This document shows, one piece after another, positions 46,822 through 53,973 of a stretch of 64,000 nucleotides of DNA. Each line of letters begins with the position of its first letter. Position 1 is the first letter of the stretch. Origin of the DNA: an uncultured Acidobacteriota bacterium (lineage in GTDB: Bacteria > Acidobacteriota > UBA6911). The translations under genes and the position numbers were made by a program. The notes beneath the pieces were generated by a model. It did not search any database, had not been told where the DNA came from, and saw only the letters and a program-made list of their open reading frames with translations. The stretch spans positions 64,001 to 128,000 of the forward strand of contig CAWHCF010000046.1 of the NCBI GenBank assembly GCA_963827655.1, in the 5' to 3' direction.

Positions 46822-47789
46822 TAATACCCGAGTCGCTTGTCCACCACGTTCTGAAGCGGCTCCCCTTTTCGAAAGCGCTCGAAGTTGTCCAGGAAGAACT
46901 GGGTAGCCTGCTCCATCCAGTCTGATGTGTGGTCGGCGCAATGGGGCGAGAGGAGGAGGTTGTCCAGACGGTAAAAAGGGTGGCCCTGCGGCAAGGGTTC
47001 ATTCTCAAATACATCGAGCGCCGCGCCGCGGATCCATTTTTCCTGGAGGGCCCGAATCAGTGCGGGTTCGTCGACCACCGGGCCGCGGCCGATGTTTATC
47101 AGGACGCCCGTCTTTTTCATGGCGCGCAGTTCGGTGGCGCCGATCATGCCGCGTGTGTCTCGCGTCAACGGCGCGGCAACGACGACATAGTCCGAGCCTG
47201 CCATTAGCTCGAGCTTTCGTTCCAGGGGCAGAAGCTGGTCGAGCATCGAGTCGTCTCGGGACTGCTCCGGGCGGCGGCGAAGCGCGAGGACCTTCATGCC
47301 GAACGCCTTGGCGCGCCGGGCGACGGCGCGGCCAATATCGCCGTAGCCGATAATCCCCAGGCTCTGCCGGCTGATCTCGTCGACATCAAAAGCTTGCCAT
47401 ATGCCTGCGTCCTGATTCCGGACCATGCGCCGAAAATCCTTGGCGAAGAACAGAACGGCGCCCATGACGAACTCACCCAGCGATTGACTGAATACTCCGC
47501 GGGAATTGGTAAGAGGAACCGGGCTTTCGACCAGCGCGGCAAAAAGTAAATTATCAAGGCCGGCGGCCATCGAGTGCACCCATTTGACCTGGCGCGCGGC
47601 ACTCCAGATCTGTTCCAGCAGGTCGCGATTTCCCGACCAGGCGAAAATCACATCGGCACGAGGCGCGCTCGGCTCGACCGCTTGCACTGTATTTCCCACC
47701 GTTACCGTGGCGGTCTGTCGCAGCTGCTCCAGCATCTTCAGCTGCGGCTGTGCAGGATCGGCAAGTACAAGCAGATTGATGAGACTCAT
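46821..47789 (-). CDS. D-2-hydroxyacid dehydrogenase
   Basis: GIIGYGDIG, INIGRG, AALDVFENEP, LSPHCA. Confidence 0.92.
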   Translation of the reverse strand: MSLINLLVLADPAQPQLKMLEQLRQTATVTVGNTVQAVEPSAPRADVIFAWSGNRDLLEQIWSAARQVKWVHSMAAGLDNLLFAALVESPVPLTNSRGVFSQSLGEFVMGAVLFFAKDFRRMVRNQDAGIWQAFDVDEISRQSLGIIGYGDIGRAVARRAKAFGMKVLALRRRPEQSRDDSMLDQLLPLERKLELMAGSDYVVVAAPLTRDTRGMIGATELRAMKKTGVLINIGRGPVVDEPALIRALQEKWIRGAALDVFENEPLPQGHPFYRLDNLLLSPHCADHTSDWMEQATQFFLDNFERFRKGEPLQNVVDKRLGY

Positions 47790-47792
47790 TCA

Positions 47793-48050
47793 GATTGACG
47801 ATTGACGATTGACGATTGACGATTCATGACGAGATTTCGTAAGCCCGTAACACTTTGCCTTTTTAGCACGAATTTCACGCTGCTCCAATCCGTGTGTCCG
47901 GAGGAGCCGGACAAACCGTGTCGTTCGGGTCCGGAAGCTGACCGCTGATAGCTGACTCCTGATAGCTCCGCGGCCGCCGGTCCGGTGGCCGCCTGCAGGG
48001 ACGATCGACTCAATGGTAAATCGTCAATCGTCAATCGTAAATCGTCAATC
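47793..48050. repeat. Inverted (GATTGAC)n / (AATCGTC)n heptamer tracts with an internal (GCTGA..)n tract
   Basis: gattgacgattgacgattgacgattgacgatt ... aatcgtcaatcgtcaatcgtaaatcgtcaatc. Confidence 0.85.
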
Positions 48051-48054
48051 GGGA

Positions 48055-49914
48055 TCAGGCGCCATGGCTCGACAGAACGGCCGTCACCCGATTCAGAGCA
48101 TCCTCGTCCTCGGGATCACCCGAAGTGAAGTCTACATACTGGATGTTCTTCAATTGCCTCGGAATCGGGCACTTCTCCAGAAGCACCGGAACTATCGGTT
48201 TGCGCTCGTCCAGAGCCGTGCGCAACTCCCCCGTCGCCTCGCTGGATTGGATGGCGGCCGGCGAGAGTACGATCAGGAAGGAGGCGCAGTCATGCAGAGC
48301 TTTGTCGATGGCCTTATCCCAGTTGGCGCCGGGTGGAATGTCGGTCTGGTCTATCCAGATGGGAATCCCGCGCTCCTTGAGCTTTCCCGCGAGGTCGAGG
48401 ACAAAGCCCTCGTCGTCACGCGCATAACAGACAAAGACGTGGTCGCCCCGTTGGTGCCTGCCTGCGACCGCACCCGTGTCCCCTGCGAAATCGATTCCTG
48501 ACGAAGAAGGCGCGCCCACGAATCCGAGCCGTTTCAAGATGTGGGTCAGCGCTTCGATTCCTAACCATCCGCCGAAGACGGAGAACGTGAAGGCGGTGAG
48601 CGGGTTTAACGCGAGACCGCGCGGCAAGACATGGATCAGACCCAGCAGCAGGATCCAGTAGAAGAGAAATCCGGCGATCAGGCCGACCACGAGACGCCAC
48701 CATCTGGTTCGTCGGCGAGTCAGAATAACAAGCAATCCTCCCGACAATCCACCCAGCGCCGAAAAGCCCATCATCGCGAGTGGCAACCTGACTTTTAGCG
48801 GGACCGTGGTGCTGAAAAGATTGGGTGTTGAAGCCGAGACCTGGAAGTCTCCCCACCAGACCGGCTCGAAGTTCGCGCGGCCTCCGGACTGCCCAGGAAG
48901 AATGGTAAATTCCTTCGGAGAGATCTCCCCGCGCCCACGACTGATCGCCACCGAAATCAAGCGTTCTTCAGCGGTGCGGATCGGCCTTCCCTTATCGTCT
49001 ACCAGGCGGACAAACAAATCCGATCGGTCCAGAAGCGTGATGTCCTGGGGATTGGGGATGAGCTCGAGCCTGGTGATCGGGGGACCGAACTTGATCTCCA
49101 ATTTTCGGTCACCTTCCAGGCGGGCCTCAGGCACGGAATCGAGATACTCTACTGATGACAGTACCCTGTTCGTTCGATTTCAAGGTCGCTTCGGCGGAAT
49201 CCTCACCCTTGTGAATTACCATGGGGTTCGGGGCCAGAATCCCGCTTCCTTGAAAGAGGCGAACTCTAAAATCCTCGGAGGATCCAGCGTCCTCTCGCAA
49301 TAGAAAAGCGTGGATCGTCACAGTGTCCTTCCCGTCCGCGAGAAACAGCCGTTGCGGGCTGAATCGTAGAGCCAGCGAAGGAAGCTTGCGTGCCTCGGGC
49401 TTCGGGCGCCGGCTCTGGAAGGCCCCCGCCGCGAGGTATCAGAATGCCCTTCGGCTCGAGCTTTTTCAGGGGGGCGCGGGCGTTTTGGAGCATGAGTGTG
49501 CGGGACCGAATCCTCGACCCGAAGGAAAGCGCCACCCGCAAGCAGTTCCTCGTGCCTGGCCCAGAGATAGACAAAGCCTCGAAGCCCTGATCGAAGAGGG
49601 ACAGTAAAAGTCTGCGAGGATTGCCCCGCCTTCATCGTAACATCCATCAATTTTTGCGGCGGATCGGCAGGAGACAGGCGCGCCTGAATCTGAATTGCGA
49701 GATCCCTCGGCGCGTTGATGGGCCGATTGTCCGAGTCCAGGAGTGTGATCCGGATACCGGCCTTACCGCCAACGGCCACCCTTGACGCAACCGGGTTGAC
49801 GTCAAGCTTGACGGGGTTCTTTTGAGCGCTGCACGGAACTGCCAGGAGGATAAAAAGAGAAAGGAGCGCTGGCGATGGCCTCCGGAAAAATGACACCAAT
49901 CCCTTGGGCCGCAC
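48055..49914 (-). CDS. Membrane TIR-domain protein: signal peptide, Ig-like ectodomain, 3 TM helices, TIR_2 (two frameshifts)
   Basis: ORFs 49318-49914, 49127-49321 and 48055-49134; LADGKDTVTI; TIR VFVCYARDD...IWIDQTDIPPGANW...VLSPAAIQSSEATGEL...QYVDFT. Confidence 0.78.
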
Positions 49915-50167
49915 AGCTTCTCCCTCCCCTGAGAATCGAATCGGCTCTATGGGTACCGGATTCTATTTTGTCGAACTGCCTTGGGGCAAGAGTATTCGCG
50001 CTTCGCGTTTCCTGGTGTTTTCGAGTCTTCGCGGTTAAGAATCCTGTTCCGGCGAGACAAGGCACACGGACCGAGGATCAAGCTTGAAAGGGCCGCCCCG
50101 ATGGACTAGGGTAACAAGGCTTACGTCAGCAACTCTTAATCTATGGTACCGATCGAGGTGAGAAGAC

Positions 50168-53107: not shown

Positions 53108-53442
53108 AGGAGTCCATCAGCATAAGAACTTTGAATGTGAACTTCAATCAAAACAGTAGGCAGTAGGCAGCATGAATGACAAATGAGAAATGCAATGATC
53201 GATGACAAATGTTTATTTATTTGTGCATCAGTTGGTGCTGCGGGCCCGGGTTGCGCTCGCAGACGACGCGTTGGATGCCGAATCCCCCGCGCGCGCGAAC
53301 GTCATGCCCTCGGCGGTTCTTGAGAAGCAGCTGCCTCGGCTCGCCTGCCAGGATCGAACTTGACCTCGGAGTTGTTCCGGAATGTGCGCCACGCTCGTGC
53401 TACGATGAGCGCGCTCCTGCGACGACTTTTCAGAGAAAGACA

Positions 53443-53973
53443 TTGGATTTCGAAAAGGTTCTCATGACGATCGCCAAGTACTTCGAACGGGAAGGTGTGA
53501 AGTTTGCCGTCATCGGTGCATTCGCGCTTCACGCTTATGGCAGAAGTCGACTCACTCAGGATCTGGATTTCGTAACAGAAGCCGCTGGCCAGGCGGCACT
53601 CATTGCCTATCTTGAGTCGCTCGGGTATCAGACCCTTCATTGCTCGGAGGGTTATTCCAATCACCTGCACAGCGACTCGGCGATGGGACGCGTCGATTTT
53701 GTCTACGTGCGAGGTGAAACCCGGCGGAAAATCTTCGAAACTCAAGGAGCGACGCTCAAGCTGGGAAATCTTTCCGTACCGGTTCCGAGAGCCGAACATC
53801 TCGTGGCCATGAAGGTCCAGGCCATGAAGAACGATCCGTCGCGCACGCTTCAGGAACTGGCAGATATTGGCTTCCTCATCCATCTCCCCGGTATTGACCA
53901 AGAAGAGGTTCGGAAGTACTTTGAGGAGGGTGGGCTGCTGAACAGTTATGAAGAGATCCGGAAGCGAACCTGA
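53443..53973 (+). CDS. AbiEii/DUF6036-like nucleotidyltransferase
   Basis: TTG start; FAVIGAFALHAYGRSRLTQDLDF, LVAMKVQA...ELADI. Confidence 0.75.
   Translation: MDFEKVLMTIAKYFEREGVKFAVIGAFALHAYGRSRLTQDLDFVTEAAGQAALIAYLESLGYQTLHCSEGYSNHLHSDSAMGRVDFVYVRGETRRKIFETQGATLKLGNLSVPVPRAEHLVAMKVQAMKNDPSRTLQELADIGFLIHLPGIDQEEVRKYFEEGGLLNSYEEIRKRT

Follow-up and report, generated by a model that had tools for sequence, protein, structure and literature searches.

A TIR protein with a predicted periplasmic Ig-like ectodomain and a three-helix membrane module from an uncultured Acidobacteriota bacterium, intact in related alleles and interrupted in the assembled copy

Introduction

Bacterial TIR domains of the TIR_2 type are known from AbTir, BtTir, SPARTA, and ThsB, and TIR enzymes are activated by oligomerisation. 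To our knowledge, the cues sensed by the bacterial TIR systems characterised so far all arise inside the cell. Here we describe a minus-strand gene (49914..48055) in a 64,000-nt stretch of contig CAWHCF010000046.1 (positions 64,001 to 128,000; assembly GCA_963827655.1) from an uncultured Acidobacteriota bacterium. This whole stretch is referred to as the window, and all coordinates refer to it unless a contig or locus is named. In intact relatives, the gene codes for a TIR domain that is joined to a membrane module and to a large, predicted periplasmic part consisting of Ig-like domains.

Single-gene TIR defence systems have been reported for Escherichia coli. According to the accessible text of that report, some of them have transmembrane (TM) helices, the TIR active site is needed for defence, and features of the TLR kind "seem absent" from the bacterial TIR systems under study (PMC11350192). 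The gene product described here resembles these systems in being a stand-alone TIR protein able to carry TM helices, and differs from them in its ectodomain, as the same text describes no large periplasmic Ig-like ectodomain (PMC11350192).

The order of extracytoplasmic binding domains, membrane span, and cytoplasmic TIR domain is shared with animal receptors of the IL-1R/Toll/TLR type, and Ig-like ectodomains are described for IL-1R (PMC7075850). The differences are that the bacterial protein has three helices instead of one, lacks leucine-rich repeats, carries Ig domains of the invasin/MG type, and has a TIR domain with 24-25% identity. An earlier note on this DNA, made from the sequence alone, had called the protein "Toll-receptor-like". 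This is justified by analogy for the domain order, but the Ig-like ectodomain brings the protein nearer to IL-1R than to Toll, and there are three membrane spans versus one. The resemblance to Toll/IL-1R does not go beyond architecture; the protein is an analogue rather than a member of the receptor family. A bacterial protein combining an Ig ectodomain, TM helices, and a TIR domain was not found described in the literature covered by our search (subscription journals were outside its coverage).

The gene and its intact relatives

As assembled, the gene is distributed over three open reading frames (ORFs) on the minus strand: ORF A (49914..49318, 198 aa), ORF B (49321..49127, 64 aa), and ORF C (49134..48055, 359 aa). 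ORF A and ORF C are in the same frame while ORF B is shifted. ORF C carries the TIR domain; ORFs A and B have no significant Pfam match. A Shine-Dalgarno-like sequence, GGGGAGGGAG (49920..49929, minus strand), is found 5 nt upstream of the GTG start codon of the gene (49914-49912).

A protein search with ORF C returned 47 matches. Among them are P0003 (618 aa, 89% identity) and P0004 (619 aa), both of full length. A cluster look-up provided P0201 (618 aa, encoded on a 564-kb contig), P0202 (619 aa), P0203, P0204 (618 aa), and P0207 (631 aa). P0203 and P0204 are identical to P0003 over the last 359 aa. Five distinct intact sequences, namely P0003, P0004, P0201, P0202, and P0207, persist in soils and share 81-98% identity.

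The gene in the window, which runs through the frames a/b/c/a, is colinear over 618 aa with its intact relatives of 618-619 aa. When P0003 is compared to the window by tblastn, residues 1-618 are colinear, with similarity dropping out around residues 152-250. The earlier note had joined three collinear ORFs by two frameshifts into a protein of about 620 aa. The ORFs and their colinearity with the 618-619-aa proteins hold, but three frame changes are required, as detailed below.

Domain architecture and topology

The domain order of the intact protein is solid: a signal peptide is followed by three Ig-like beta-sandwich domains, a three-helix membrane module, a basic linker, and a TIR_2 domain. 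The architecture was analysed on an AlphaFold2 model of P0003 (mean pLDDT 66), computed from a 16-row alignment (A1) with 3 fused and 13 TIR-less proteins out of the 47 matches. Residue numbers are those of P0003, and all coordinates in this section are on the minus strand.

The signal peptide (ca. residues 1-31, ..LLAVPCSA/Q; 49822..49914), which the earlier note had recognised, has a basic n-region and a hydrophobic core. It has no lipobox, the Cys is not conserved in relatives, and residues 1-33 are of low confidence in the model. The ectodomain, which had been described as beta-rich, consists of three all-beta domains in the P0003 model: D1 (residues 35-133; 49516..49812; supported by AlphaFold2 and Foldseek), D2 (179-276; 49084..49366; encoded in frame c until break 3), and D3 (281-375; 48787..49071; AlphaFold2), which is the best-modelled part with a pLDDT of about 90. 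D1 and D2 are connected by a Pro-rich disordered linker (residues 138-175 in the model; 49367..49515), which is variable in length and sequence and contains breaks 1 and 2.

D2 carries the SPQRLFLADGKDTVTIHAF motif. The LADGKD sequence lies within the most conserved motif of the ectodomain, in which S185, P186, Q187, R188, L191, K195, and D196 are invariant in alignment A1. A Foldseek search with the P0003 model ranked invasin (1cwv, E 1.5e-12) first, followed by MG domains (from complement and bacterial alpha-2-macroglobulin) and FdeC. Big_1 had no Pfam match at E <= 1 in the ORFs of the window, and Big_1/Invasin_D3 matches in relatives are below the cut-offs (21.4 vs 34.9 bits). As to the invasin/Big_1-like LADGKDTVTI motif proposed earlier, LADGKD is part of a conserved motif and invasin is the best fold match, but Big_1 is not matched above cut-off. 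The likeness to the Big_1 arrays of invasin, intimin, and FdeC and to the MG domains of alpha-2-macroglobulin consists in the tandem beta-sandwich domains and the Foldseek ranking. In contrast to invasin-type proteins, the chain described here relies on C-terminal helices as its anchor in the inner membrane and has no outer-membrane barrel; whole-chain TM-scores are low (0.13-0.23).

The membrane module is supported by the model, the alignment, and hydropathy. TM helix 1 (378-398; 48718..48780) contains ALGGLxGG with invariant glycines. TM helix 2 (405-425; 48637..48699) follows the cytoplasmic loop TRRRTRWWR, in which W405 and R406 are invariant. TM helix 3 (437-462; 48526..48603) follows an invariant LNP turn and contains GGWLG. 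With Kyte-Doolittle maxima of 1.81, 2.56, and 1.25 for TM1 to TM3, the three hydrophobic helices noted earlier are found after the ectodomain, but the third one is only moderately hydrophobic. No other part of the family is conserved as strongly as this module, which has further invariant residues at G387, G388, G391, G392, G410, G414, W419, L435, N436, P437, F441, S444, G447, G448, W449, and G451. A supposed likeness of the module to GlsB/YeaQ (Transgly_assoc) was discarded, as PF04226 had no match to the locus at E <= 10.

TM3 and the TIR domain are separated by a junction (48442..48525) that is basic by charge count and hypervariable (43% mean identity among the intact alleles). Lys and Arg together number 5 in loop 1 and 8 in the part after TM3, as opposed to a single residue each in loop 2 and before TM1. 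Together with a cleaved signal peptide, this distribution points to an N-out, C-in topology, so that the TIR domain is most likely cytoplasmic; the positive-inside counts agree with what the earlier note had stated.

The TIR domain and its relation to described systems

The C-terminal TIR_2 domain (PF13676; 48088..48438, minus strand; ORF C residues 233-349) had been recognised before and is matched with an E-value of 1.8e-30 and 106.3 bits (cut-off 28) over profile positions 1-120 of 122. The TIR profile PF01582 also matches ORF C (E 2.9e-7). A model of the TIR domain from the window, based on a 35-row alignment, has a pLDDT of 90.6 and a pTM of 0.83. Its fold matches, given as TMq (the TM-score normalised to the query), include Hydra TRR-2 (0.74), AbTir (0.75, rmsd 2.2), and SPARTA TIR-APAZ (0.75-0.77), and MAL and MyD88 are also among the best solved fold matches. 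By sequence, the best solved relative is again Hydra TRR-2 (E 5e-8), so that an animal receptor is the best solved match at both levels.

A Glu at a specific position of helix alphaC is catalytic in solved TIR NADases. This Glu is kept (codon at 48226..48228, minus strand; E303 of ORF C, E562 of P0003). The earlier note had placed it in SSEATGEL, and the precise residue is the second Glu of that motif: the Glu of ..TGEL.. is aligned with the Glu of ..YEL.. in 7uxr (BtTir). It is invariant in 48/48 aligned TIR segments; 59 sequences had been supplied to this alignment, of which 11 ORFs from the same genome were left out because blastp did not retrieve them at 1e-3.

The nearest TIR domains (54-67% identity) form a subfamily with the motif SxEVRGELRTALDE. 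Its members are fused to FGE-sulfatase and other domains, and some have TM helices. The TIR module comes from a promiscuous TIR subfamily of soil bacteria and was fused to the cytoplasmic end of the membrane module in one narrow lineage.

With the bacterial TIR_2 domains of AbTir, BtTir, SPARTA, and ThsB, the domain shares the Pfam family, the canonical fold, and the Glu at the catalytic position. It differs in that neither the protein nor its neighbours have APAZ, pAgo, a ThsA-type effector, a cyclase, SAVED, or STING, and in that the TIR domain is tethered to a three-span module and a predicted periplasmic part of about 340 aa. In PADLOC, the protein is best matched by the TIR domains of defence proteins; like those from NCBIfam, these matches are confined to the TIR part and are far below the full-length cut-offs. 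For Thoeris, there is no adjacent effector gene (within ca. 10 kb, by Pfam), and the match to the ThsB profile is weak (E 4e-6) and restricted to the TIR part. For CBASS/Pycsar, a nucleotide-sensing domain (SAVED, STING, or cNMP-binding) is absent from the protein and a cyclase is absent from the neighbours. For SPARTA, the best PADLOC match is limited to positions 5-120 of a 430-position profile, and no Argonaute is encoded nearby.

A rare fusion to an unnamed membrane-protein family

The ectodomain and the membrane module belong to a family of which a profile of this part retrieved 823 representatives at E <= 1e-3, with 268 at E <= 1e-30. The profile of alignment A1 (16 family members) matches the locus in the window in three pieces (E 8e-113, 1.5e-38, and 1.5e-34), which jointly span profile positions 11-470 of 471. 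Neither Pfam nor NCBIfam nor the ESM Atlas provided a name for the ectodomain family. Its members have a signal peptide, three Ig-like domains, and three TM helices, occur in Acidobacteriota (mainly metagenome-assembled genomes, MAGs, of Bryobacterales), and share 40-44% identity with the studied protein over ectodomain and TM module, including the invariant TM motifs GGxxGG, WR, LNP, and GGWxG. They differ from it in that they end a few residues past TM3; the TIR domain has been added only in the lineage of the window.

Among the best 150 of the 823 representatives, the chain continues for more than 60 aa beyond TM3 in only two, P0005 (from the TIR cluster, by 148 aa) and P0070 (by 101 aa, without Pfam match). 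Several have N-terminal extensions that likewise have no match in Pfam. The earlier note had proposed to look for the TIR fusion in homologs; nearly all of these best 150 are devoid of TIR. Likewise, a TIR domain is absent from 9/9 genome loci (from Bryobacterales and other Acidobacteriota MAGs) and from G112, which is the second of only 2/137 genomes from the class of the window that have family members. No ortholog was found in 40 related genomes. The TIR fusion is real. Because the best 150 of 823 nearly all end directly after TM3, it is rare and derived. For the same reason, the module does not normally act as a transducer with a cytoplasmic output.

The neighbourhood of TIR-less members was inspected at 7 of 9 loci (27 ORFs). 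They are often located beside peptidase genes: M48 (L027, L028), astacin (L026), M14 (L024), and M28/M29 (L029). Examples of this association are found at L027:8513-9964, L028:9428-10867, L026:7035-7793, and L079:2633-3394, and M48-PsbP is located downstream at 2 loci. In G112, a papain-like C1 gene is flanked by two chagasin-like inhibitor genes. At two Bryobacterales loci (L023:1739-3481, L024:6137-7876), a gene for a Ser/Thr kinase with PEGA is found directly upstream on the same strand, at a distance of about 60 nt; the kinase gene and that for the TIR-less member may share an operon.

These observations bear on the explanation that the ectodomain with its three TM helices is a structural or protease-related envelope protein that does not sense at all, the TIR domain being tethered to it or being a nearly neutral accretion in the process of being lost. 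An output domain is missing in nearly all listed family members, peptidase genes are frequent neighbours, and the fold matches to the MG domains of alpha-2-macroglobulin and complement point in the same direction. The peptidase association is loose, however, as no neighbour family is common to all 7 loci.

Intact alleles, deletion alleles, and sequence constraint

In the five intact alleles, the mean identity of the TIR domain (87.7%) is close to that of D1-D3 (87-89%) and of the three-TM module (89.4%), and much higher than that of the Pro-rich linker (56%) and of the TM3-TIR junction. Nucleotide differences between the window and soil contigs fall on third codon positions in 23/35 listed cases (35 listed of 175). 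Since the TIR domain is as conserved as the folded ectodomains and the differences show a third-position bias, the TIR domain is under constraint in the intact alleles. The comparison with soil-run contigs covered 4 of 20 runs, and the 20 runs hold 0.14-0.28 of the sampled words. A metagenome scan for P0003-related loci found nothing, by which absence is not shown.

A natural deletion allele is missing 1320 bp (48027..49346, minus strand), which removes part of D2 and then D3, the TM module, and TIR. It is represented by one contig of run X3 and by two 269-aa proteins, P0198 and P0205, from three contigs of the Joint Genome Institute (JGI). In both proteins, D2 is joined to the spacer with the heptamer repeats, and the tails read into this spacer. 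One end of the deletion is located inside a heptamer array, which is described below.

Frequent broken and deleted alleles are in favour of a TIR domain that is tethered to, or a nearly neutral accretion on, a non-sensing envelope protein. That the TIR domain is as conserved as the ectodomains in intact alleles, with a bias towards third-position changes, and that five distinct intact sequences persist in soils speak against it, and we consider this explanation rather improbable.

Frame changes in the assembled copy

Translation of the window copy in three frames and comparison with the intact proteins revealed four stop-free segments, each of which is 94-100% identical to some intact allele: segment 1 (frame a, 49914-49462, 151 aa), segment 2 (frame b, 49457-49407, 17 aa; 16/16 identical to P0202), segment 3 (frame c, 49405-49157, 83 aa; 95.2% identical to P0201), and segment 4 (frame a, 49152-48058, 365 aa; 96.2% identical to P0201). 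Hence, there are three frame changes, each corresponding to one extra base in the window, and the full protein cannot be made from the window copy as assembled.

Break 1 (49458..49461, minus strand) is one extra base in GAAAAAGCTCGAG (PPEKA / EPKG). Soil contigs from runs X1 and X2 are one base shorter (at 49461): the window reads AAAGCTCGAG and the contigs read AAACTCGAG (EKLEPK), with P0201 and P0003 encoding EKAEPK. Break 2 (49404..49407, minus strand) is one extra base in GCGCCCGAAG (EPAP / KPEAR), and no near-identical contig bridges this site. Break 3 (49153..49155, minus strand) is one extra base in GTCATCAGTAGAG (GTVI / VEYLDS). Here, contigs from runs X2 and X3 are one base shorter (at 49155): the window reads GTCATCAGTA and the contigs read GTCACAGTA (VTV, as in P0202 and P0004), with P0201 and P0003 encoding VIV. 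At breaks 1 and 3, the window appears to combine two alleles, each of which is in frame.

Programmed frameshifting was rejected because it would take three separate +1 events, none of which is at a known slippery motif. Two explanations were weighed. The breaks may be a mixed-strain consensus artefact, or all three may be real, making the gene a dead pseudogene in this strain; the latter would concern this copy only and is compatible with the functional readings given below.

It argues for an artefact that every extra base is at a polymorphic site and that the window reads as two alleles merged into one. Divergence is not raised in the shifted D2 segment, which has 95.2% identity to P0201 as compared with 94.7-96.2% elsewhere. 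All 18 neighbouring genes have full-length Pfam matches, and the breaks in this assembly are therefore clustered. Clustered internal stops (1-3 each) are also present in 4/67 listed matches of this genome to PF25183 (OMP_b-brl_4, a 2.5-kb outer-membrane barrel family); one PF25183 match with internal stops (C46:61826-64519) overlaps the first bases of the window.

It argues for a pseudogene that proteins from two other assemblies start at or beside the start of ORF C, which suggests a break at the same place there and is a point against an artefact. P0001 (365 aa, starting MEYLDSV) has 6 differences from the window over 359 aa, and P0002 (359 aa), encoded on a 2.3-kb JGI contig, begins with the very GTG of ORF C. 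They represent two sublineages in which intact members (P0201 and P0202, one in each) occur as well. Furthermore, break 3 is outside any homopolymer, ORF C has no Shine-Dalgarno sequence of its own, and the natural deletion alleles show that the gene is dispensable. Taken together, we consider a mixed-strain consensus artefact somewhat likelier than a true pseudogene, with the latter falling just short of an even chance.

The window alternates between P0201-like and P0202-like stretches (21 runs over 50 sites). This mosaic was considered as a sign of a chimeric consensus and was set aside, because three roughly equidistant lineages would give the same pattern. A metagenome scan for the exact pattern of the break-3 allele found nothing, by which absence is not shown.

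Proposed function

By analogy with described TIR enzymes, the intact gene may be a single-gene, strain-variable defence or stress module in which a change at the envelope leads to TIR assembly and then to NAD+ cleavage or to a nucleotide signal. The membrane module would anchor the TIR domains on the inner side of the membrane. They would be brought together by a change in the envelope, such as contact with a ligand or phage, damage, or clustering of the ectodomains. Their assembly would switch on NAD+ cleavage or the production of a nucleotide signal, and either could result in growth arrest. That clustering would activate the TIR domain is proposed because other TIR enzymes are activated by oligomerisation. 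The coupling of an envelope sensor to an NADase is plausible, and we hold the defence or stress module as a whole to be a tentative reading, somewhat short of an even chance.

Several findings weigh against this reading. No defence gene is present within about 10 kb (18 neighbours analysed with Pfam, 8 neighbours with PADLOC), and clustering with known defence genes, as would mark the defence island that the earlier note had suggested looking for, was not found. The GC content is like that of the flanks, so that base composition does not hint at a foreign origin. A cytoplasmic domain is missing from more than 98% of the listed family members, and the ectodomain module is not evidently a sensor. 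Finally, TIR NADases carry a Trp four residues before the catalytic Glu (WxxxE), whereas this aromatic residue is replaced by Glu in the window and in 29/48 aligned segments, with Trp in 5 and Phe in 5.

The TIR content of the genome is relevant to another explanation. There are 31 TIR_2 matches in 30 ORFs. Pfam analysis of 28 of the TIR ORFs revealed SIR2_2-TIR (4 copies), Macro-TIR, TIR-STAND-WD40, TIR-PASTA, TIR-Lcl_C, TIR-DUF4384, and SEFIR. Several have an N-terminal TIR domain to which WD40, PASTA, or unknown domains are connected by a strong hydrophobic helix (TIR ORFs of this genome are, e.g., C35:79463-82807, C51:71018-74083, C32:69226-70299, and C50:180798-182357). The TIR-TM-WD40/PASTA proteins are the mirror image of the arrangement in the studied gene. 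Two TIR-nSTAND1 genes of the same genome (G000) look fragmented (C36:16353-17436 and C36:29013-29687). One of them is represented by overlapping ORFs with parts 1-34 and 24-121 of the TIR profile, and in the other one, STAND is cut at 89-133 of 379 positions. They add to the breaks of the kind seen in the studied gene.

The TIR domain may accordingly be a node in a TIR network, making a small signal for effectors encoded elsewhere or recruiting other TIR proteins by TIR-TIR contacts. Besides the wealth of SIR2_2-TIR, Macro-TIR, TIR-STAND-WD40, and TIR-TM-WD40/PASTA proteins, the closeness of the domain, in sequence and fold, to a Hydra Toll-related receptor and then to MAL and MyD88 is consistent with this. 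Also, the loop W-I-D-Q-T-D-I-P-P-G resembles the metazoan Box 2 (RDxxPG; PMC7075850). Against a network role stand the invariant catalytic Glu, the lack of a partner linked to the gene, and the equally good fold scores of NADase TIR domains. In addition, we know of no bacterial TIR domain for which an adaptor-type function has been shown. We regard a role as a network node as unlikely.

In a more far-reaching version, the protein would be an independently built IL-1R-like receptor which perceives a periplasmic cue (adsorption of a phage, damage to the envelope, or contact with a neighbouring cell), relays it through clustering of the three-helix module, and passes the TIR output, either NAD+ cleavage or a nucleotide signal, into a network of about 30 TIR proteins, so that outside-in signalling would occur in a prokaryote. 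Because most of the ectodomain family is without TIR, the fusion arose independently and not by common descent with animal receptors. This version, too, we consider doubtful, and a single-gene defence or stress module remains our preferred, if tentative, reading.

Genomic context

On one flank, the gene is accompanied by genes for an amidase, sugar enzymes, a CDF transporter, a beta-lactamase-fold protein, PMT_2, a GDSL lipase, and 2-Hacid_dh. The other flank carries genes for a DegT aminotransferase, HhH-GPD, SDR, cytochromes, PQQ dehydrogenases, and an ECF sigma pair. All 18 neighbours are housekeeping genes by Pfam and the 8 neighbours examined with PADLOC had no match, in agreement with the earlier statement that no partner effector is nearby. 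An ORF at a distance of 3.3 kb (53209-53973) has a weak match to AbiEii (26.8 vs 22.5 bits, covering 34 profile positions) and no PADLOC match; it is the sole hint of a defence gene in the surroundings.

In G007, which represents a related genus, an unrelated gene of 282 aa (L074:8498-9346) occupies the slot flanked by 2-Hacid_dh and DegT. As no ortholog was found in the 40 relatives, the slot is occupied differently in G007, and a deletion allele exists, the gene is accessory and strain-variable and is located in a variable slot between housekeeping genes.

Inverted arrays of a heptamer (GATTGAC / GTCAATC) are found at 47785-47824 and 48019-48058. The 40-nt arms are 90% complementary and 194 nt apart; one array overlaps the start of 2-Hacid_dh and the other one the stop of the TIR gene. 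The site is unique in the window (7 matches vs 0.01 expected), and contig depth at it reaches up to about 3700 in four soil metagenomes. The heptamer array is a generic intergenic repeat that has no part in the function of the gene.

Biological significance

Gene callers cut this gene into three, and the breaks responsible for this may be an assembly artefact. Its analysis brings to light an extensive family without a name, comprising 823 representatives: Ig-domain proteins of the inner membrane that share a remarkably well conserved three-helix module. The soil acidobacterium itself carries about 30 TIR genes, several of which code for membrane-spanning proteins. If the proposed function is true, a TIR domain on a periplasmic ectodomain would mean that the envelope is sensed, before or at phage entry, and the protein would be a convergent counterpart of the animal IL-1R and Toll receptors.

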